Shown here piece by piece: positions 1,030 to 16,222 of a DNA stretch of 16,682 nucleotides. Positions within the stretch are counted from its first letter, which is position 1. Every line of letters begins with the position of its first letter. Below the pieces are notes generated by a model. It saw nothing but the letters and a program-made list of their open reading frames with translations, did no database searches and was not told the origin of the DNA. Origin of the DNA: a virus; UHGV virus genome UHGV-0178820. One strand, written 5' to 3'. A program made the translations under genes and the position numbers.

Positions 1030-1182
1030 TATATTGATTTACAATGTATTTCTACAAAAAGACTTTCTTTTCATCAAAGAAAGAAAAGAAAGCTTGTAAT
1101 TTTCTATTTGTAGATCAATACTTATATCCGAAGGGATAACACGGCGGTGTTATCCGCACGGATAACTTTTAAGGGTAACCTA
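1030..1182. promoter_or_regulatory. Divergent repressor/early promoter-operator region (Pc / Pe analogue; probable Ner and repressor operators, possibly the transpositional enhancer)
   Basis: 153-bp AT-rich intergenic region between divergent repressor and ner. Perfect 10-bp inverted repeat CTTTCTTTTC (1063-1072) / GAAAAGAAAG (1083-1092); perfect 8-bp inverted repeat GATAACAC-GGCG-GTGTTATC (1135-1154); repeated GGATAAC half-sites at 1134-1140 and 1160-1166. In Mu the equivalent region holds O1-O3 and the enhancer (established knowledge). Confidence 0.6.
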
Positions 1183-1419
1183 ATGATGGTTAGAAATGAA
1201 GTAATGAACAAAGACTGGCACCGCGAGTACATCGTTGCCGCTGTGCACACCAAAGGTTTTACATTGCGTGAACTTTCTGAACGCGCTGGTCTAAAAAAAG
1301 ACTCTTTAAAAAATGCACTGTATCGCTCATGCCCTAAATATGAACGCATCATAGCCGATGCTATTGGTGTGGAACCTGCGGAGATCTGGCCAAGCCGGTA
1401 TGCCAGTAAGGCGGCGTAA
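1183..1419 (+). CDS. ner: Ner-like DNA-binding transcriptional regulator
   Basis: Small ORF immediately upstream of the transposase with TAATG stop/start overlap at 1417-1421. C-terminal ...IIADAIGVEPAEIWPSRY... resembles the Mu Ner C-terminus (recalled). Start at ATG 1183 chosen for the AAGGG SD-like motif 7 nt upstream; ATG 1204 is an alternative. Confidence 0.8.
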   Translation: MMVRNEVMNKDWHREYIVAAVHTKGFTLRELSERAGLKKDSLKNALYRSCPKYERIIADAIGVEPAEIWPSRYASKAA

Positions 1420-3461
1420 TGTTTTATTCAGCCAATGAGCTGGCCGGTCTTCCTGGTTTGCCCGGTACAGTTCAGGGGGTGCGCTGGACGCTCAATCGGA
1501 TCACAGAGACGCACCCGGAATGGAAGCGCAAGCGTGAAGGCACCAAAGCATTCGAGTATCACATCGACTGCCTGCCCGCTGAAGCGCAGAAAGTTTTACG
1601 TAAGCGCCTGACCCATCAGGTCCTGGAAGATACGCAACTGCCCGCCGTGGTTGAGCAGAAGGCAGTTAAAAACGTCGCCGTTCGCGATGAACTGGAGGTG
1701 ATGGTCAAATGCCCGGAACTGGCATTACGCGAAGTCCAGGCACTGACTGACAAGCAAAAGGCCATCGCTGATGCGCGGATATTGCTGGCTACTGAAGTGC
1801 ATAAACTGCGCGAATACGCCGGAATGACCAGGAAGGCCGCGTTAAAGCACATCGTTGATGGTGTGCGCATGGGGGCGTTACCTGACCGCATTATCGAAGC
1901 AGCTAATACTGCAAATGCACGTCAGGGAAAGCGAACCGGTGTCAGCACCGGCAGCCTGGATAGCTGGTACTCCAGCTGGGTGATGGCGCGCGGTGATGCC
2001 AATCAGTTACTGGCGTTACTGGCTCCCGGTCATCATAAGGGAACACCGTGGGAGCAGGTCTGGTGGTTGAGCGATTTCTTTATGTTCTATCGCTCATGGA
2101 AGCGCCCGACCGTTGAATATGCGTATCGTGAGTTTTCAGCCTGGTGGCATGAAAAACACGCGAATGATGCGGGAATGCTGGCAGCACTGCCTTCAGTTCA
2201 CGCAGTAAGACGGGTGTTAAGCAACGTCCCGGTGATTGTTAAAGAGCGTTTCCGCTCCACCGGTTCAGCCTGGCGTTCGCTCAATCCCTTTGTGCGGCGC
2301 GACTGGAGCACATTACCGGTTAATGCGGTATGGGTCGGGGATGGTCACTGTATGAAAATGACCGCGTTTAACCCCCTTACCGGCAACATTTTCCGACCTG
2401 AAGTGACGCTGGTTATGGATGCAGGGCAGCGCTTTGTTGTGGGCTGGTCACTGTCCCTGTCGGAGAACGTGATAGCTGTTGCTGATGCGTTGCGTTACGG
2501 CATGGCACAGCACGGGATACCGCTGATTTATTACTCCGATAACGGGGGCGGCGAAAAAAACCGGGTGCTTGATGCCGATATTACCGGGATTCTGCCCCGT
2601 CTGGGTGTGGAACATCACACGGGGATACCAGGTAATCCGCAGGGGCGCGGGGTGATTGAGAGGCTTAACAAGGAAATTCCCCGGGATGTGGCCCTGAGTT
2701 TCCGGACGTACTGCTCAAAAGGAGCAGACAAGGAAACCGTAATGATGCAGCAACGGATTATGCAGTCAGCCATTAAGGCCACCCACAAAGGGAAAGAGCT
2801 GACAAAACGGCAGGTTAAGGCAAGGGATGAAATCCCCACCTTTGAGCAACTGATGGCAGCTATAGAGCTGGAGGTCAGACGCTATAACAACCGGCCACAC
2901 AGCAGCCTTCCTCGCAAAGAGGATGGCGAATATTACAGCCCGGCAGCGTATCGCCGGAAACTGATAAAAGAGCAGAATGTTGAAATTGATTTCCTGTCGC
3001 CGGAAGAACTGCATGAAATGTTCAGGCCGGAAGTGACGCGCAAAACATTTCGCGGGGAAATTCAGTTATTCAACAATATTTATTACTCGTATGAGCTGGC
3101 CGCAGAGCACGGGAATGAAGTCAGGGTCAGTTACGATATTCATGATGCAAACAGTGTCATTGTCCGGCGGGCTGATGGCTCTTATATCTGCGATGCCATC
3201 TGGAACGGTAACAAGGTTGATGCCTTCGCTAAACCAGTTATCGAACAAAAACTGGAGAAACGCGTCAAGGGCCGCATTGCACGGGCCACGCAGAAAATCG
3301 AAGAGGCTAAACGCGAGCTTACCCCGGCTATTACGCAGAAGCCTGAGTTTAATCTGGGATATGGACTGGAACGCCAGGAGAAAAAGGAAAAAGAAGAACT
3401 TTATTTATTCGTGTCTGACCGTGAGCGCAATTTAAAGAAAAACGGCACAAATAATCGTTAA
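1419..3461 (+). CDS. A: DDE transposase, MuA-like (680 aa)
   Basis: Size and position as Mu A; candidate DDE catalytic motifs VWVGDGH, YYSDNGGGE and a downstream acidic region; basic C-terminal tail; N-terminal LPGLPGT..GV motif typical of the MuA/repressor DNA-binding domain. Confidence 0.9.
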   Translation: MFYSANELAGLPGLPGTVQGVRWTLNRITETHPEWKRKREGTKAFEYHIDCLPAEAQKVLRKRLTHQVLEDTQLPAVVEQKAVKNVAVRDELEVMVKCPELALREVQALTDKQKAIADARILLATEVHKLREYAGMTRKAALKHIVDGVRMGALPDRIIEAANTANARQGKRTGVSTGSLDSWYSSWVMARGDANQLLALLAPGHHKGTPWEQVWWLSDFFMFYRSWKRPTVEYAYREFSAWWHEKHANDAGMLAALPSVHAVRRVLSNVPVIVKERFRSTGSAWRSLNPFVRRDWSTLPVNAVWVGDGHCMKMTAFNPLTGNIFRPEVTLVMDAGQRFVVGWSLSLSENVIAVADALRYGMAQHGIPLIYYSDNGGGEKNRVLDADITGILPRLGVEHHTGIPGNPQGRGVIERLNKEIPRDVALSFRTYCSKGADKETVMMQQRIMQSAIKATHKGKELTKRQVKARDEIPTFEQLMAAIELEVRRYNNRPHSSLPRKEDGEYYSPAAYRRKLIKEQNVEIDFLSPEELHEMFRPEVTRKTFRGEIQLFNNIYYSYELAAEHGNEVRVSYDIHDANSVIVRRADGSYICDAIWNGNKVDAFAKPVIEQKLEKRVKGRIARATQKIEEAKRELTPAITQKPEFNLGYGLERQEKKEKEELYLFVSDRERNLKKNGTNNR

Positions 3462-3479
3462 TTTAAAAGGTATTTAATT

Positions 3480-4373
3480 ATGAGTTTAATTACGCAATTA
3501 AATGACGTAATGGCCCGTCGCGGCTTTACGCAGACCCACGTTGCCCGTGCTATTGGTCGTAGCAGCGCCGTTATTAACCAGTATTTGCAGGGTAAATATC
3601 AGGGCGATATGGCTGATATTGAAGAACGCATTTCTGCCTTTGTGACCCGTGAATGGGAAAAGGAAAACAACCGCCGTATTAAAGTGCGATTTGTCACCAC
3701 CGGCATGGCCGCCAAAGGGCTGGAGGTGCTGACCTACGCCCATCTGGAGTGTGATATTTGCGTGCTGTATGGCGCGGCGGGTCTGGGTAAAAGCATGATT
3801 CTGAGTGAGTATGCTGCCAGAAACCGAGATGTAGTGCTCATTGAAGCCGATATTGGCTATACGGCCAGAAAGTTACTCGATGAACTGTGCCGTCAGCTGG
3901 GTATAAAGGTTCACGGCGATATTCGCGAGAAGATTGATGCCTGTGTGCGTGAACTGCGTGGGTCAGGTCGTCTGCTGATGGTGGATGAGGCTGAACTGCT
4001 CCCCTATCGTGCACTGGAGGTATTGCGCCGTCTGCATGACAAAGCGGGTATCGGGATTGTCCTGGCGGGTATGCCTCACCTTCTGATTAACCTTAAGGGC
4101 CGTTGTGGTGAGTTCGCTCAATTATACAGCCGCGTGGCGCTGGCGCTTAACCTGGGCGATACGCTGACGCAGGAAGATTTTAACAAGATTGCCACAGACA
4201 TGATGCCGGAAGCGGCAGACCCGGAAATTGGTGAGGCACTTTACACACGTTCGCTGGGCAATGCCCGTCGTCTGTTCAAGCTGGCGCGCGGTGTGTACCG
4301 GATTTGTGATATCAGCGATGCACCGGTCAGTGTGCAGGCCATTGATAAATATTCAGAAATGTTAATTCACTGA
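3480..4373 (+). CDS. B: MuB-like AAA+ ATPase / target DNA activator
   Basis: Immediately downstream of A; N-terminal HTH-like segment (FTQTHVARAIGRSSAVINQYLQG); Walker A GAAGLGKS; Walker B-like LLMVDEAE; about 300 aa as in Mu B. Confidence 0.9.
   Translation: MSLITQLNDVMARRGFTQTHVARAIGRSSAVINQYLQGKYQGDMADIEERISAFVTREWEKENNRRIKVRFVTTGMAAKGLEVLTYAHLECDICVLYGAAGLGKSMILSEYAARNRDVVLIEADIGYTARKLLDELCRQLGIKVHGDIREKIDACVRELRGSGRLLMVDEAELLPYRALEVLRRLHDKAGIGIVLAGMPHLLINLKGRCGEFAQLYSRVALALNLGDTLTQEDFNKIATDMMPEAADPEIGEALYTRSLGNARRLFKLARGVYRICDISDAPVSVQAIDKYSEMLIH
4354..4373. repeat. 20-bp perfect direct repeat, copy 1 (CAGAAATGTTAATTCACTGA), spanning the 3' end and stop codon of B
   Basis: Identical 20-mer recurs at 4727-4746; the two copies bracket the 4387-4719 ORF. 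Confidence 0.95.
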
Positions 4374-4386
4374 GTAAAGGTCAGAT

Positions 4387-4719
4387 ATGGAACAGATTGT
4401 CGTTAAAAAAGAAATTAAAGCACTACGGAATATCGGTCGTAATGGTTGTATTTATTCTAATGAGACCCCTGGTGAAATTATTCCGTTTGTTGATTGCTTT
4501 GTGCCGGGTGAACTGCGCGTTGATTTGTATTCCCGCGAACGGGAAATCAATGGAACCGGAAACACCAGCGATGACTGGGACGTTGATGAATGCTGCGCGC
4601 GATTAATGATTATCCCTTTTGAGCAGAATTTACAGGGATTTCGTCGGGCTTATCGTCTTGCGCGCATGTGTGCCCGTCTTCCCCGTTATCAGCCACGACT
4701 TGCGTTTGCACTCAGATAA
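4387..4719 (+). CDS. Hypothetical protein (110 aa) on a repeat-flanked cassette; Arg-rich C-terminal tail
   Basis: ORF with AAGG 7-8 nt upstream; bracketed by the 20-bp direct repeat; visibly more AT-rich than the flanking B gene. No family recognised. Confidence 0.6.
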   Translation: MEQIVVKKEIKALRNIGRNGCIYSNETPGEIIPFVDCFVPGELRVDLYSREREINGTGNTSDDWDVDECCARLMIIPFEQNLQGFRRAYRLARMCARLPRYQPRLAFALR

Positions 4720-4726
4720 TGCAGCG

Positions 4727-4746
4727 CAGAAATGTTAATTCACTGA
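4727..4746. repeat. 20-bp perfect direct repeat, copy 2 (CAGAAATGTTAATTCACTGA)
   Basis: Exact copy of 4354-4373, located 8 nt after the stop of the 4387-4719 ORF. Confidence 0.95.
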
Positions 4747-4760
4747 TGGAGAACAAGACG

Positions 4761-4985
4761 ATGGACAAGCAGACCATTAACGCCGTCCGTTCCCGTGCCC
4801 GTGTGGCCATCCACACCACTGGCGGTCGTGTAACGGGGCAGCATCACCGTTTACCTGTGGTTTATGCCTGCCCGCCCGTGGGTGGTCCTGTATGGCCGGT
4901 AACGGAAATCATCCAGACATTCAGCGGCCTGCGCCGCGTGGTTAAAACGTCCTGTATCGACGGCTGCACCGTCGTATGGCAATGA
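4761..4985 (+). CDS. Hypothetical small protein (about 74 aa; Cys-containing)
   Basis: ORF in the 4668-4985 frame; ATG 4761 has GGAG 9 nt upstream; ATG 4746, the first ATG after the repeat, is an alternative start. No family recognised. Confidence 0.5.
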   Translation: MDKQTINAVRSRARVAIHTTGGRVTGQHHRLPVVYACPPVGGPVWPVTEIIQTFSGLRRVVKTSCIDGCTVVWQ

Positions 4986-4997
4986 GAGGAAATCAGA

Positions 4998-5213
4998 ATG
5001 GCGGTTAAGTTAGAAGTGATTATCTATACCGATGAAAAAGGCGCGACTTTAACCCAGATTACAGGGAGTTATTCGAAGGACGGCACTTCCGAAAGGGAGT
5101 TTCAGGTGGCAACAGGATTACATGATGTTATCAAGGAAGCGCTCAGAAATGACTATAACGGCGTGAATCTTTTTTCTGAAAACGTTGCGCCTCGCGCACA
5201 TAACACAAATTAA
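4998..5213 (+). CDS. Hypothetical small protein (71 aa)
   Basis: ORF with AGAGGA SD-like motif 8 nt upstream; co-oriented and tightly spaced within the early operon. Confidence 0.55.
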   Translation: MAVKLEVIIYTDEKGATLTQITGSYSKDGTSEREFQVATGLHDVIKEALRNDYNGVNLFSENVAPRAHNTN

Positions 5214-5242
5214 TCTGTAAATATCACTGAGGTAATTTAATT

Positions 5243-5887
5243 ATGACGACTGAAAATAAAGTTAAGCAATACACGAAAACTCAAGCGCCTGAAGGTTACT
5301 GGGTGGATGCCCGTGGCGTAATGACACCTGAAAGCCTTATCAAAGATATTGACCGCGACCGCGAGCAGCTGGTCGGTGAGCTTGTGGAGATGGTGATTGC
5401 TGCCTCCGCCTCACTGCGGGAACTGAAACTGCGTGCGTTTGGTGATATCCAGGCATTTATTGACCTGTCGGCGGAGAAATACGGCGCTGTGAAAGGCGGC
5501 AAAAAAGGCAATATCACGCTTTACAGCTTTGACGGACGCTACAAGATTCAGCGCGCCATGCAGGACCGTATCGCGTTTGATGAGCGCATCCAGACCGCGA
5601 AATCGCTGATTGATGATTGCCTGGCTGACTGGACGGAAGGCGCACGACCTGAAATTAAAGCCATCATCAGTGAGGCATTCAGCACGGACAAGGAAGGCAA
5701 CATCAACACCGGGCGCGTTCTGGCCCTGCGTCGCCTGGAAATTGAGGACGAACGCTGGAATAACGCTATGACGCTGATTGGTGAAGCCGTCCAGGTGATT
5801 GGCAGCAAGAGCTATATTCGTGTGTATGAGCGCGTTGGTGATTCTGATGAATACCGCGCAATCCCGCTTGATATTGCAGGGGTTTAA
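5243..5887 (+). CDS. Conserved Mu-like phage early protein, DUF3164-like (214 aa)
   Basis: ORF with GAGGT 9 nt upstream; size and early-region position match proteins recalled as DUF3164 in Mu-like prophages. Assignment is from memory and needs a profile search. Confidence 0.6.
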   Translation: MTTENKVKQYTKTQAPEGYWVDARGVMTPESLIKDIDRDREQLVGELVEMVIAASASLRELKLRAFGDIQAFIDLSAEKYGAVKGGKKGNITLYSFDGRYKIQRAMQDRIAFDERIQTAKSLIDDCLADWTEGARPEIKAIISEAFSTDKEGNINTGRVLALRRLEIEDERWNNAMTLIGEAVQVIGSKSYIRVYERVGDSDEYRAIPLDIAGV

Positions 5888-5888
5888 C

Positions 5889-6122
5889 ATGCATCAGGAT
5901 ATAAAAGAGTACAGGGCCGGAAATAGTTGCGCGGCGTATTCGCTGGGCGCGTCCAGAGCAGAACAACGCGGCGATTATGACGAGGCAGAAAAACTGTGGC
6001 GCAAGGCAGCGCAAAGCCCGTGTAGCACCCTGCGCCGCATCTGGGCTGAACACCGGGCACAGTTCTGTGCCAATGCTCACCTGAAAGGATGGAGGCCGCA
6101 TCATGAACGCGAAGAACTTTAA
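5889..6122 (+). CDS. Small protein, possibly ANR-family regulator-like (77 aa)
   Basis: ATG at 5889 two nt after the stop of the preceding gene; GGGG SD-like motif upstream. Family call is a weak recollection. Confidence 0.5.
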   Translation: MHQDIKEYRAGNSCAAYSLGASRAEQRGDYDEAEKLWRKAAQSPCSTLRRIWAEHRAQFCANAHLKGWRPHHEREEL

Positions 6123-9021: not shown

Positions 9022-9068
9022 CAGGCCAAAACATACGTTTTGGTCTGCCAAAAGTAGTGTTTTGGTCA
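9022..9068. promoter_or_regulatory. Two tandem palindromic units (GCCAAAAC-ATAC-GTTTTGGTC and GCCAAAAG-TAGTG-TTTTGGTC); candidate operator or RNA structure
   Basis: Each roughly 22-bp unit is itself an inverted repeat (CCAAAA...TTTTGG) and the two are direct repeats of each other; located in the intergenic gap just upstream of the 9071 gene. Confidence 0.5.
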
Positions 9069-9070
9069 TT

Positions 9071-9349
9071 ATGAAGATTGAACAAGTCGGAATGGCAGCT
9101 TTCAGGCAACAGGCTGAAAGCGGTGGCGTGGATGAGTTCGTCGTGCAGCGGTTCGGTGGTGTGTATCACCTCTTCGCTGTGAATCGCCGCGCCGGGGTGT
9201 CCTATTTTCTACAGGAACGCCGTGGCGATTACAAGACGTGGCTGTCTCTTGACCGTGCCGCCGCGTTCCTGTCGGGGATTGGTGTTTCACGTTTTACCGT
9301 GCGTTTTGAGGATAACAAACATGCTGAAAAAGATGATCGGGGCCATTAA
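9071..9349 (+). CDS. Hypothetical protein (about 92 aa) immediately upstream of and overlapping gemA
   Basis: ORF in frame with track ORF 9062-9349; weak RBS; start uncertain (9062 TTG, 9071 ATG or 9092 ATG). Overlaps gemA by 29 nt in a different frame. Confidence 0.45.
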   Translation: MKIEQVGMAAFRQQAESGGVDEFVVQRFGGVYHLFAVNRRAGVSYFLQERRGDYKTWLSLDRAAAFLSGIGVSRFTVRFEDNKHAEKDDRGH

Positions 9350-9734
9350 AGCCGGTCAGGCATATCTGGGGTGGGATGATGCTCTTTATCGCCAGACACT
9401 GGCCCGCCTGACAGGTAAAACCAGCACCACACGCTGCAACCTCGATGAACTGCGCATCATCCGGGAATACATGCACGAACAGGGATTTCCGCGTAAAGCC
9501 CCCGCCGGTAAAGGTCGCCGCCCCCGTGTGGCAATGAGCAGAAAATCGGTATTATCCAAAATTGAAGCGTTGCTGGCTGATGCCGGTCGTTCCTGGGCAT
9601 ATGCGGAAGGACTGGCATCTCACATGTATAAGCAACATGTGATCGAATGGCTGACAGATGATCAACTGTTCGGGGTGATGGTGGCGCTGACAAAAGACGC
9701 CAGAAAACGAGCCAGAGCAGCACGTAAACAATAA
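9321..9734 (+). CDS. gemA: GemA-like protein (Mu gp16 family, DUF1018)
   Basis: Pattern ...LGWDDALYRQTLARLTGKTSTTRCNLDELRIIREYMHEQGF... matches the recalled GemA signature; GAGGA upstream of ATG 9321; position just before the late activator as in Mu. Confidence 0.75.
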   Translation: MLKKMIGAIKAGQAYLGWDDALYRQTLARLTGKTSTTRCNLDELRIIREYMHEQGFPRKAPAGKGRRPRVAMSRKSVLSKIEALLADAGRSWAYAEGLASHMYKQHVIEWLTDDQLFGVMVALTKDARKRARAARKQ

Positions 9735-12960: not shown

Positions 12961-12986
12961 TCTGATATTTGTATACCAGGTGTGAC

Positions 12987-14627
12987 GTGGCAAAACGTAA
13001 ACTTTCCATTAAAGAGTTTCAGAAAAGCTTACAGGAGTACATCGCCAACCTCCGACAGACCATCGAGGCTGAATGTCTGGGGTTCGATGTTAACCCGCAG
13101 GCCACACAGGCCCGCCGGGCGGCAGTCTGCGACCCGGTGACGGGCTACGATTATTTTGTCGAAAACTATTTCCCGCACTACGTCCGCAACCCGGCAAAAA
13201 GTGAGCTGCATAAATACCTGTTCAGCCGTCTGCCACAGGTTGTGGCAAGCCCGGCCCCGGAGAACGACGCCATCGCCGCGCCCCGTGGTGAAGCAAAATC
13301 CACGCTGGTGACTCAGCTGTTTACCCTGTGGACCATTATCCGGGGTATTAAGCATTACCCGGTCATCATTATGGACAGTATCGACCAGGCTTATCCGATG
13401 CTGGAAGCCATCAAGGCTGAACTGGAATTTAACCCCCGTTTAAAAAACGATTTCCCGGAAGTGTGCGGACAGGGGCGCGTCTGGCGTATGGGGACCATCG
13501 TCACGGCCAACAATATCAAGGTGACCGTTGCCGGTAGTGGTAAAAAGCTGCGTGGTCTGCGCCACGGCCCGTACCGTCCTGATCTGGTTATCCTCGACGA
13601 CATCGAGAACGACGAGATGGTGCGCAACCCGGAGCAGCGCGACAAACTGCATAACTGGCTCACCAAAACCGTGATGCCACTGGGTGAGGCTGGCGGTAAA
13701 ACCGATATTATTTATATCGGGACCATCCTGCATTACGACTCCGTACTGTCGCGCACGCTGAATAACCCGATGTGGAAAACGGCCCGTTTTAAGGCCGTCA
13801 TTCAGTGGCCTGCCAATATGAAGCTGTGGGACGAGTGGGAAGAACTCATCCGCAACAAACAGCCGGAAGCGGCGGAGGCACTTTATCAGCAGAACGAAGC
13901 CGATATGCTCGCCGGGTCGGTGGTGTCATGGGCGGCGCGTCCCCTGCTGGCGCTGATGAAAATCCGTGTCCGTGACGGCCATGACACCTTTGATTCTGAA
14001 TACCAGAACGACCCGGTCAGCGGTGAAGATGCGCTGTTTGCGGGCTGCATTAAGTTCTGGGTTAACCGTCTTGATGAATGGGTGTTCTACGGCGCTGTTG
14101 ACCCCAGCCTCGGGAAGAAGAATAAAAACCGCGACCCGTCGGCCATTCTCGTGGGGGGCTTTAACCGCTTTACCGGCATTCTGGATGTGGTTGAAGCCGA
14201 TATCCGCCGACGTCTGCCGAATAAAATTATCGAAGACGTGATCAAGTATCAGCGGGAATATCACTGCCTGTGCTGGTCGTTTGAGTCCGTCCAGTTTCAG
14301 GAATTTCTGCGTACCGTGCTGGTTGAGCGTTCGGCGGCGCTGGGTGTGCCGGTTCCGGCGCTGCCGGTCATCCCGCTGGAGGATAAGGCGCTGCGTATCG
14401 AATCCCTTCAGCCGCATATGGCCAACGGCCTGATTCGTATCAGTCACACACATCAGACGCTGATTGACCAGCTGCGCCACTACCCCAAAGCCGACCACGA
14501 TGATGGCCCGGACTGTCTGCACATGCTGTGGACGCTGGCGGTATCGCGCAGCGCAAAATTTCAGATACACACCCCACGCAGCACCGGGCGTGACCGTGGC
14601 GGGCGTTTTGGTTCAGGAGGATGGTAA
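12987..14627 (+). CDS. Terminase large subunit (Mu gp28-like)
   Basis: Walker A-like GEAKST, Walker B-like DLVILDDIE, and a C-terminal nuclease-like region with conserved acidic residues; 546 aa from GTG 12987 (AGGTG 4 nt upstream); the ORF-track start at 12969 is a TTG. Confidence 0.85.
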   Translation: MAKRKLSIKEFQKSLQEYIANLRQTIEAECLGFDVNPQATQARRAAVCDPVTGYDYFVENYFPHYVRNPAKSELHKYLFSRLPQVVASPAPENDAIAAPRGEAKSTLVTQLFTLWTIIRGIKHYPVIIMDSIDQAYPMLEAIKAELEFNPRLKNDFPEVCGQGRVWRMGTIVTANNIKVTVAGSGKKLRGLRHGPYRPDLVILDDIENDEMVRNPEQRDKLHNWLTKTVMPLGEAGGKTDIIYIGTILHYDSVLSRTLNNPMWKTARFKAVIQWPANMKLWDEWEELIRNKQPEAAEALYQQNEADMLAGSVVSWAARPLLALMKIRVRDGHDTFDSEYQNDPVSGEDALFAGCIKFWVNRLDEWVFYGAVDPSLGKKNKNRDPSAILVGGFNRFTGILDVVEADIRRRLPNKIIEDVIKYQREYHCLCWSFESVQFQEFLRTVLVERSAALGVPVPALPVIPLEDKALRIESLQPHMANGLIRISHTHQTLIDQLRHYPKADHDDGPDCLHMLWTLAVSRSAKFQIHTPRSTGRDRGGRFGSGGW

Positions 14628-16222
14628 TGGCACAGCTTGTTGATATTTACGGACGCCCGCTGAAACGTGAGGCGCTCAAAACCACGCAGTCGGTCAGAGT
14701 GGCGGAACGGCTGCGCATTTATCCCGACCACCCGTCGCGTGGTCTGAACATCAGAAAACTGCCGCGCATTCTGGAAGCTGCCGAACGCGGTTATCTTCCG
14801 GCGCAGGCGATGCTGTTTGCGGATATGGAAGAACGTGATGGCCATCTGTTCGCCGAGATGGAAAAGCGCAAAAAAGCATTGCTGACGCTGGACTGGTCGG
14901 TGGAGCCGCCCCGCAATGCCTCGAAGGCAGAAAAGGAACTGGCCGCCGCCGTGGATGACTGGCTGCATGGTATCCCGGACATGGAGGACATCATCCTTAA
15001 CGGGATGAGCAGTGTCGGTTATGGCTTCAGTTGTCAGGAAATCAGCTGGGCGTTCGTGGATAAAACGTGGTTACCGGATGCGGTGACGCTGCGACCGCAT
15101 AACTGGTTTATTACCCTGCCGGAACACAATGACGAACTCCGGCTGGATGACGGCAATCGTGGGGAAGATGGTAAAGACGGTTCCCCGCTGTGGCCGTTCG
15201 GCTGGCTGGTTCACCGTTACAACGCCCGGTCGGGGTTCCTGGGTTCATCCGGCCTGTTCCGCGTACTGGTCTGGCCGTATCTGTTCAAAAACTTTGCGCT
15301 GCGTGATATGGCAGAATTTCTGGAGATTTACGGCCTTCCGGCGCGCATTGCGTACTATGCACAGGGCACCAGTGACGAGGACCGGGACAACATTCTTGAG
15401 GCGCTGGTCAATCTGGGTCATGAAGCGGTGGCAGCCCTGCCGCAGGGTAACGAAATTGAGTTCAAGGAGGCCGCGTCCGGCGGACCGGAGGCGTTCATGT
15501 CGATGGTGGAATGGGCAGAGCGCACCACCTCAAAAGTGATTCTGGGCAGTACGCTGACCAGCCAGGCTGACGGTAAAACCTCCACCAACGCGTTGGGTAA
15601 TGTGCATAACGAGGTCCGGCACGACATTCTGGCCGCCGATGCGCGCCAGTTGTCCGGCATGTTCAGCAGCCTGATACAGATGATGGCCAGCCTGAACGGC
15701 TGGCAGGATATCCCGCCACGCCGTCTGCCGCGTCTGGTGTTTGATGTGCAGCAGGAAGCCGACATTAAGGGGGTGGCGGAAGCCGTCAGTGTGCTGGTCA
15801 ACAATGTGGGAATGAAGGATATCCCGGTGTCGTGGGTGCGCAAAAAAACCGGTATCCCCACCCCGAAAGACGGCGAAGAGGTACTGGTTCCGGTGGCACA
15901 GCGTCTCCCTGTGCAGACCGGTCTCAGCCAGCTGCGTGAGCGGATGAATGTTGCCGCACTCAGTCAGCAGGACAACGGGGAGGACGACCCGGCACAGAAC
16001 GCCATCGACCGGGCAGAGCTTCCGGCAGAGGCCATCGCGCAGGGGATGAACGAACTGGTGGCCCCACTGGTGCAGGCCATACAGGAAGGCCGGGATGCAG
16101 ACGAGGCCATGAACGTACTGGCGGAAGCGTGGCCGGAGCTGCCGGATGACACGCTGCGGCAGTTGCTGACACAGGCATTCTTTGTGGCGGATATCTGGGG
16201 GCGACTGAATGCCGACAGCTGA
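14627..16222 (+). CDS. Portal protein (Mu gp29-like, DUF935 family)
   Basis: About 531 aa directly after the terminase with TAATG overlap and AGGAGG SD 6 nt upstream of ATG 14627; size and order match the Mu portal. Confidence 0.8.
   Translation: MAQLVDIYGRPLKREALKTTQSVRVAERLRIYPDHPSRGLNIRKLPRILEAAERGYLPAQAMLFADMEERDGHLFAEMEKRKKALLTLDWSVEPPRNASKAEKELAAAVDDWLHGIPDMEDIILNGMSSVGYGFSCQEISWAFVDKTWLPDAVTLRPHNWFITLPEHNDELRLDDGNRGEDGKDGSPLWPFGWLVHRYNARSGFLGSSGLFRVLVWPYLFKNFALRDMAEFLEIYGLPARIAYYAQGTSDEDRDNILEALVNLGHEAVAALPQGNEIEFKEAASGGPEAFMSMVEWAERTTSKVILGSTLTSQADGKTSTNALGNVHNEVRHDILAADARQLSGMFSSLIQMMASLNGWQDIPPRRLPRLVFDVQQEADIKGVAEAVSVLVNNVGMKDIPVSWVRKKTGIPTPKDGEEVLVPVAQRLPVQTGLSQLRERMNVAALSQQDNGEDDPAQNAIDRAELPAEAIAQGMNELVAPLVQAIQEGRDADEAMNVLAEAWPELPDDTLRQLLTQAFFVADIWGRLNADS

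Follow-up and report, generated by a model that had tools for sequence, protein, structure and literature searches.

How does a small gene come to lie inside a perfect direct repeat, between two genes that adjoin each other in relatives? The question is raised by the viral genome UHGV-0178820, a stretch of 16,682 nucleotides (nt) that we refer to in its entirety as the window and that forms the left arm of a Mu-like prophage. In the window, the 20-mer CAGAAATGTTAATTCACTGA is present at 4354–4373, where it ends the gene for a MuB-like ATPase (B), and again at 4727–4746, shortly before the gene kil, with no mismatches between the two copies. The repeat encloses an open reading frame (ORF) for 110 amino acids (aa) at 4387–4719, which we call ORF110. 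An initial annotation, made from the sequence of the window alone, read this arrangement as the mark of a recently acquired moron that was either inserted with duplication of the junction or swapped in by recombination at a conserved junction sequence. Our analysis indicates that the repeat is very probably a recombination scar, left by an out-of-register exchange between two diverged Mu-like prophage lineages.

The repeat itself is exactly as first described. A search of both strands of the window, allowing up to three mismatches, returned no further copy of the 20-mer, and two matches were reached in 0 of 200 dinucleotide-preserving shuffles, which bears out the view that a chance origin is negligible. 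The second copy begins at the eighth base past the stop codon (TAA) of ORF110, across a 7-nt gap with the sequence TGCAGCG, and its final base, at 4746, opens an ATG in the reading frame of kil.

Three states of the B–kil junction

A related prophage, 85–98% identical, is found in 58 of 5,426 complete Escherichia coli (E. coli) genomes. Where the match to the window covers the full 1901-nt query (L001 and L004), the junction is filled: ORF110 is present together with both copies of the 20-mer. In other relatives (L002, L003, L005 and L006) the match is shorter by exactly 373 nt, a single copy is present and B adjoins kil. These empty sites, together with L027–L037, read ...CAGAAATGTTAATTCACTGA/TGGAGAAC...ATG, with B ending in CACTGA. 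The empty form is the more common one, with ORF110 in 10 and absent from 48 of the prophage-bearing E. coli genomes; among 16 IMG/VR contigs that contain the junction, 5 are filled and 11 empty. A search for genomes with one 20-mer and no insert had been proposed in the initial annotation, and the existence of such genomes, with B and kil adjacent, supports its suggestion that an ancestral phage had B directly before the next gene.

A third state is found in Salmonella-type Mu-like prophages (L007–L011), which we refer to as donor-type. Here the order is also B–ORF–kil, but there is no copy of the B tail. The donor-type B protein is 306 or 311 aa long, kil is diverged, and the ORF product, at 73–76% amino-acid identity, is the most divergent of the close homologues of ORF110. 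The ORF and kil are separated by an 18-nt spacer, TGCAGCG GAGAAAT CATC, so that these loci read ...CTCAGATAATGCAGCG GAGAAAT CATCATG. Both parental configurations, the empty B/kil junction and the repeat-free B–ORF–kil arrangement, are therefore represented among sampled genomes. More distant family members in Enterobacter, Salmonella and Providencia showed no duplication at the same slot.

Position of the joints and origin of the second copy

The right-hand joint can be read directly from an alignment of the three states. The donor type reads GCAGCG/GAGAAAT/CATC-kil, the window reads GCAGCG/CAGAAAT/GTTAATTCACTGA-TGGAGAAC, and the empty site reads TTCG/CAGAAAT/GTTAATTCACTGA-TGGAGAAC; in the latter two, CAGAAAT is followed by GTTAATTCACTGATGGAGAAC. 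The window is therefore donor-like up to AGAAAT and recipient-like from AGAAAT on. This hexamer is common to the donor ORF–kil spacer and to the start of the recipient B tail, and the match extends to eight of nine positions when written as CG.AGAAAT.

Similarity along the locus changes in blocks. In a global alignment with L007, the window is ∼78% identical over ∼4357–4733, compared with 45–65% in the flanks, and the extra bases of the window lie directly after AGAAAT. By segment, the identity to L007 is 79% for the ORF, 58% for the last 300 nt of B and 64% for kil; over all sampled donor-type loci the corresponding values are 75–79%, 56–58% and 64%. By this measure the transferred block is closer to the donor lineage than its flanks are. 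On the left, the two lineages have GAAATGTTAATTCACTGA and the first spacer bases (GTAA) in common, in contrast to the otherwise diverged B. The B–ORF spacer of the window, GTAAAGGTCAGAT, has its homologue in the donor-type spacer GTAAGGATTTATGT (L007) and is absent at empty sites. The left, homologous exchange probably lies in the conserved B tail at 4354–4373.

These observations suggest the following course of events. The recipient, of E. coli type, would have carried B directly before kil, in the form ...TTCG CAGAAAT GTTAATTCACTGA TGGAGAAC...ATG-kil, and the donor, of Salmonella type, would have carried B–ORF–kil with its ordinary 18-nt ORF–kil spacer. The left exchange would have taken place within the ∼18–20 nt of the B tail (GAAATGTTAATTCACTGA) that both lineages have kept as the coding sequence of the C-terminus EMLIH. 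On the right, an illegitimate exchange at the 6-nt AGAAAT would have joined the donor spacer to the start of the recipient B tail, entering the recipient 20–22 nt upstream of the B stop codon. Because the crossover entered upstream of that stop codon, the recipient B tail would have been retained behind the incoming ORF. There it would have become a non-coding relic, joined to a native kil leader that the exchange left unchanged, with the expression signals of kil intact. Break-join recombination or a double template switch during replication could equally yield this product. The block of ORF and relic may afterwards have been moved behind several B alleles by homologous exchange in the flanks, and deletion between the repeats could recreate empty sites.

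Of the two routes offered by the initial annotation, recombination at a conserved junction is thus the one supported by the parental and recombinant states, whereas an insertion that duplicated the junction is contradicted by the base-by-base account of copy 2 as the retained B tail of the recipient. Duplication of a target site by a mobile cassette, such as a transposon, a homing element or an integron-like cassette, would likewise place a gene-sized insert inside a perfect direct repeat at the B–kil junction and would likewise leave empty sites in relatives. The details of the locus do not fit such an element. Terminal inverted repeats do not exceed chance-level matches of 6–11 nt, and the 353-bp insert carries no transposase, integrase or endonuclease, its sole content being the 110-aa ORF, which lacks any such domain; in the early region as a whole we found no integrase, the Mu-type transposase being the only enzyme of this kind. 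Transposase duplications usually measure 2–14 bp, a range that 20–22 nt exceeds. No attC-like structured site borders the insert, as both copies have folding z-scores close to zero and no Rfam match. The same gene occupies the same slot without a repeat in other lineages, and the parental sequences fully account for copy 2. In addition, inserts at the neighboring slot between kil and the next gene (L003–L006) are not flanked by duplications, and because of this the scar cannot be regarded as a general signature of cassettes. We consider a target-site duplication so improbable that it can practically be set aside.

Comparison of the filled loci indicates how the relic has been passed on. Its 19-nt core, AGAAATGTTAATTCACTGA, does not vary across 13 filled loci, some of which have a resident B gene with a different tail. 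The base before the core is C, as in the recipient, in seven of these loci and G, as in the donor, in six. The run over which the relic is identical to the resident B tail varies: it is 22 nt in L004, L025 and L039, 20 nt in the window and L040, 19 nt in L001, L012, L013, L023 and L024, and only 3 nt in L022, L026 and L038, where B ends in ...TTAATTAAGTGA and relic and B tail differ at three to four of 20 positions. An invariant core beside a B tail that differs, as in the last three loci, argues that the relic is inherited and not re-copied, and the varying length of the identical run makes the perfect 20-mer of the window one outcome of later shuffling of B alleles around a single old joint.

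This shuffling is also evident on the left side of the insert. The same scar lies behind three different B alleles, and at least three left-hand spacers (GTAAAGGTCAGAT, CAGGGAGTTATCGT and CTGGAGTTTTGCGC) are combined with the same right-hand scar (L012/L013, L022/L026 and the window), as are two alleles of the 5' end of the ORF, beginning MEQIVV... and MEKMAL.... Both the B tail and the ORF, over its first ∼30 codons, have thus undergone repeated reshuffling. A second, independent remnant of a B tail, 12 nt long, was observed at the site of a B-allele swap in Salmonella enterica (L017, GCA_004189615.1, 3460–3500). Here a 311-aa B ends in ...TTCATTAA and is followed by GTA, TTAATCCACTAA and TAAGGAATTAATT; this sequence is found in L016 and L020 as the tail and spacer of the other B allele, which encodes 297 aa. 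This independent scar identifies the 3' end of B as a recurrent joint.

The invariance of the relic core might instead mean that the 20-mer is a functional cis element, involved in initiation or coupling of kil translation or in protein binding, and that selection has kept copy 2. Next to an ORF that differs by 5–15%, the core is constant in the 13 filled loci, and the TGATG overlap at empty sites is typical of translational coupling. However, at ∼9% divergence only ∼2 differences are expected per 20 nt, which makes the invariance of 19 nt statistically uninformative, and exchange with empty-site phages, where the same sequence is under coding constraint, can homogenize the core. The motif occurs at no other gene junction in the window beyond its two copies, and donor-type phages have kil behind a quite different 18-nt spacer. 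The repeat also gives no sign of RNA structure, with folding z-scores of 0.04 for the relic, −0.33 for the B tail and −0.38 for the empty site, and it has no match in Rfam. We therefore regard selection on a cis element as quite improbable. Judged by its sequence, the relic appears to be neither a target-site duplication nor a regulatory motif.

Four points weigh against an out-of-register exchange as we have described it. The sampled donor-type ORFs are just 75–79% identical to the ORF of the window, so either the true donor is unsampled or the event is old. The two variants of the joint, with C or G before AGAAAT, require a later point change or conversion, or else two events at the same spot. 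It is parsimony, and not a dated phylogeny, that gives the direction of transfer; we infer both this direction and the enzymology of the event. Finally, the empty sites of the present day could be secondary deletions between the repeats.

The last point can be extended to the proposal that E. coli-type prophages were filled ancestrally and that every empty site is such a deletion. Slipped-strand deletion independent of RecA acts on direct repeats of this kind, 20 nt long at a distance of 373 bp, and would give exactly the empty sequence; filled and empty forms do occur on the same B-allele and kil-allele backgrounds. The source of the relic, however, must have had a B tail that ran into the kil leader, and at least one ancestor of empty type must therefore predate the filled type. 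An unequal crossover at AGAAAT within one genome would duplicate the whole ORF and not the tail alone, and empty sites form the majority both in the complete genomes (48 of 58 without the ORF) and in the IMG/VR contigs (11 of 16). These considerations make an ancestral filled state unlikely and leave the exchange between two lineages as the preferred reading.

The ORF110 gene and its protein family

The initial annotation regarded ORF110 as a moron, and this reading has some basis. The ORF is present or absent among relatives between the same two genes, and its GC content is lower (0.456) than that of B (0.519) or of the window (0.527). The statement that it is visibly more AT-rich than B holds in this sense, but the difference is mild and only the first half of ORF110 shows it (0.404, compared with 0.509 in the second), and the neighboring core-region gene at 4998–5213 has a GC content of 0.431. 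A moron has been defined as a coding region with its own flanking promoter and terminator and deviant composition (PMC4378225). In consensus scans of 3400–6000, we found three promoter-like sites where shuffles gave 3.3 and two terminator-like sites where 3.1 were expected; none flanks 4387–4719, and the only plus-strand promoter-like site in the vicinity lies inside the ORF, at 4629–4656. All family members examined, down to ∼30% identity, are in the same post-B slot. Measured against this definition, ORF110 is not a classical moron, and the absence of signals above chance and the fixed slot of the family both argue against the label.

Acquisition does not appear to have been recent either. 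The rate of synonymous substitution (dS) between scar-bearing alleles of the ORF is 0.16–0.55, and it is ∼1.2 relative to donor-type L011; with such divergence among alleles that share the scar and lie behind three different B alleles, the joint is not recent. A recent classical moron that came from outside this phage group with its own transcription signals is accordingly highly improbable. A dispensable resident of the early operon fits the data better, and, since no promoter or terminator signal was detected, ORF110 is probably read from that operon. The ratio of nonsynonymous to synonymous substitution (dN/dS) is 0.07–0.33, which marks ORF110 as a real gene under purifying selection. It is a non-essential early gene, accessory in a minority of relatives.

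In L024 (IMGVR_UViG_2529292908_000014), the homologue of ORF110 is 332 rather than 333 nt long and is one A short in the A-run near its 5' end (GTAAAAAAGAAATT), which reflects either a true frameshift, leaving a pseudogene, or an error in sequencing the homopolymer. The filled-type prophage of E. coli RM9088 (L038, NZ_CP042298.1) carries an IS1A at 1799–2641 that truncates its phrog_7438 gene. Disruption of ORF110 by this IS1 was considered and rejected because the insertion lies in the phrog_7438 gene and ORF110 is intact.

As the initial annotation supposed, the product of ORF110 belongs to no recognized family. A word-indexed search returned eight close clusters, and an exhaustive profile search extended the family to 22 cluster representatives (E ≤ 1e-3). 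A further profile search assigned members to Enterobacter, Cedecea, Salmonella, Providencia, Raoultella and Serratia, and all are annotated as hypothetical. They share the motifs EIxALR, DxYS, DWDVD and FRRAYRLARL. We found no match to the family in Pfam, PHROGs, NCBIfam or PADLOC, and the best match to PDB sequence profiles had an E-value of 0.34. A tblastn search of deposited phages with ORF110 and three distant family members returned no relative, a profile scan of genome contigs in a one-genome-per-species set found none, and a literature search for the accessions of family proteins found no mention. In every context examined, even at ∼30–40% identity, the family gene lies immediately 3' of a MuB-like gene. 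The ORF110 proteins thus appear to constitute an undescribed family with a fixed post-B slot in enterobacterial Mu-like prophages.

The predicted protein has a mass of 12.8 kDa and a pI of 8.3, with an acidic core, a strongly basic stretch of 30 residues at the C-terminus and no hydrophobic segment. An AlphaFold2 (AF2) model based on a 23-sequence alignment has a mean predicted local distance difference test score (pLDDT) of 74.6, with values of 80–94 over residues 31–100; an earlier model from six close sequences (pLDDT 50.7) was too poor for use. The model shows a small α/β arrangement that ends in a long basic helix, for which Foldseek found no match in PDB or BFVD at E ≤ 0.001. Going by its position and charge pattern, we would guess that ORF110 acts in the cytoplasm as an early accessory protein and uses its basic C-terminal helix to bind a partner of host or phage origin. 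More broadly, the family might comprise small early proteins of the first post-B slot that act as a new host-takeover or anti-defense factor, or as modulators of B or Kil, and that are selected strongly enough to be exchanged between lineages and retained despite repeats that favor loss; we offer this only tentatively, as one possibility that is more doubtful than probable.

Genomic setting and comparison with known systems

The features of the locus and of the surrounding left arm are collected in Table 1. RefSeq labels the homologues of the window B protein as 'AAA family ATPase'. The gene after ORF110 can be identified as kil from its profile match and its early-operon position after B, and an Enterobacter homologue (L015) also matches Pfam Kil_protein (PF26843). 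The kil leader of the window is the same as that of empty-site genomes and differs from the donor-type leader, CATC. The initial annotation had copy 2 ending at the first ATG of the next gene; an in-frame ATG is indeed present at 4746, but the likely start of kil is the ATG at 4761, behind the Shine–Dalgarno (SD) sequence GGAG, and RefSeq starts the relatives there or one codon upstream. In empty-site relatives, the B stop codon overlaps an ATG in frame with kil (TGATG), five codons before the annotated start. Translational coupling of B and kil, or a longer Kil isoform beginning MENKT-, is possible in these phages. In the filled state the relic keeps the ATG at 4746, but translated B sequence no longer lies before it.

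Table 1. Features of the UHGV-0178820 window, with emphasis on the B–kil region
Feature	Position	Strand	Remarks
CI-type repressor	367–1029	−	
Ner-like HTH_35 protein	1147–1419		
Mu-type transposase A gene	1419–3461	+	Mu-transpos_C and HTH_Tnp_Mu_1 matches
MuB-like AAA+ ATPase gene, 297 aa	3480–4373	+	Pfam AAA_22 (3.3e-19) and TniB (4.3e-06); directly 3' of A
Repeat copy 1	4354–4373	+	Last 20 nt of MuB-like gene, codons S-E-M-L-I-H-stop; conserved across diverged B alleles
B–ORF spacer GTAAAGGTCAGAT	4374–4386	+	Ribosome-binding site AAAGG 6 nt before ATG; probably derived from donor lineage
ORF110, 110 aa	4387–4719	+	
TGCAGCG, putative remnant of donor-lineage ORF–kil spacer	4720–4726	+	Identical in L007/L011, reading ...TAATGCAGCG/GAGAAAT
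Repeat copy 2	4727–4746	+	Probable non-coding relic of recipient B 3' end, TGA stop included; colinear with empty-site B tail and kil leader
AGAAAT microhomology	4728–4733	+	Proposed site of right-hand illegitimate crossover; context CG[G/C]AGAAAT
Native kil leader TGGAGAACAAGACG	4747–4760	+	SD GGAG at 4748–4751
kil, 74 aa	4761–4985	+	phrog_2679 'Kil protein for bacterial septation inhibition', E 5.7e-35; alternative in-frame start 4746
phrog_7438 gene	4998–5213		
DUF3164 protein	5243–5887		
GemA, Mor, holin, endolysin, DUF1804 protein	Further downstream		
Two long ORFs	12969–14627 and 14621–16222		Expected terminase and portal positions; no Pfam match

A second variable site, with zero, one or two extra small ORFs, lies between kil and the phrog_7438 gene (4985–4998 in the window). 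The inserts, of 197 or 459 nt, take the place of a 13-nt spacer, and with them kil ends in TAA instead of TGA (L003, L004 and L005 compared with L002 and the window). Farther downstream, at 9025–9067, two tandem 21-nt units, GCCAAAACATACGTTTTGGTC and GCCAAAAGTAGTGTTTTGGTC, each a palindrome with an 8-bp stem, are located in the gap upstream of the GemA-like gene (9222–9734); they could be a terminator pair for the early operon or a binding site for a regulator. Two filled-type copies of the prophage (H4 and H5; NZ_OZ547097.1 and NZ_OZ547049.1) reside on ∼249-kb records classed as plasmids, not chromosomes, a location that plausibly fits a transposable phage.

The gene order resembles that of Mu, with repressor, ner, A, B and kil followed by gemA, mor, lysis genes and the terminase and portal positions, and in empty-site relatives kil directly follows B, as in Mu. 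The B protein of the window is, however, <60% identical to that of any deposited phage, and no deposited phage has a relative of ORF110. The closest B among deposited phages, at 59.6% identity, is that of Klebsiella phage ST405-OXA48phi1.1, and a megablast search of deposited phages with 3400–5300 found nothing.

In Mu-like phages of Pseudomonas aeruginosa, accessory ORFs have been described in 'regions of genomic plasticity' (Cazares et al. 2014, PMC4378225). ORF110 is similar to these ORFs of 34–100 codons in being short, variable, functionally uncharacterized and a single-gene indel of the kind found mainly in the left arm. It differs from them in that its phages and hosts belong to the Enterobacterales, there is no sequence relationship, and the mechanism of acquisition can be read from the sequence; that study stated that an analysis of the flanks of such ORFs was still needed. 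ORF110 also shares with morons the character of a single small ORF between genes that are adjacent in relatives, and its GC content is somewhat lower, but it has no promoter or terminator of its own above chance, lies inside the early operon and belongs to a family native to its slot.

The closest parallel is with the mosaic joints of phage genomes, for which illegitimate recombination and recombination at short conserved flanking sequences have been considered as alternatives (Martinsohn et al. 2008, PMC2327257; Hendrix-type model). As in those joints, a block of higher similarity is set in more diverged flanks, the joints lie at gene boundaries and leave all genes intact, and one border is in the short conserved B tail while the other is at a 6-nt microhomology. 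The phage here is transposable and Mu-like, unlike in the lambdoid case. Mosaic joints are usually inferred without their parents, whereas here recipient, donor-type and recombinant states have all been sampled, the crossover can be placed within 6–9 nt of microhomology, and, unlike at most described joints, a by-product is visible as a 20–22 nt duplicate of the 3' end of a gene. The locus is therefore a new example of a known process, phage mosaicism by illegitimate and short-homology recombination, and leaves the current understanding of phage evolution unchanged; its open novelty is limited to the uncharacterized ORF110 protein family. It nevertheless provides a tidy worked example and a practical marker for following how Mu-like prophages of E. 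coli and Salmonella exchange sequence. It also draws attention to a conserved small protein family in fixed synteny with a transposition ATPase gene, and to the conserved tail of that gene as a recurrent recombination joint.

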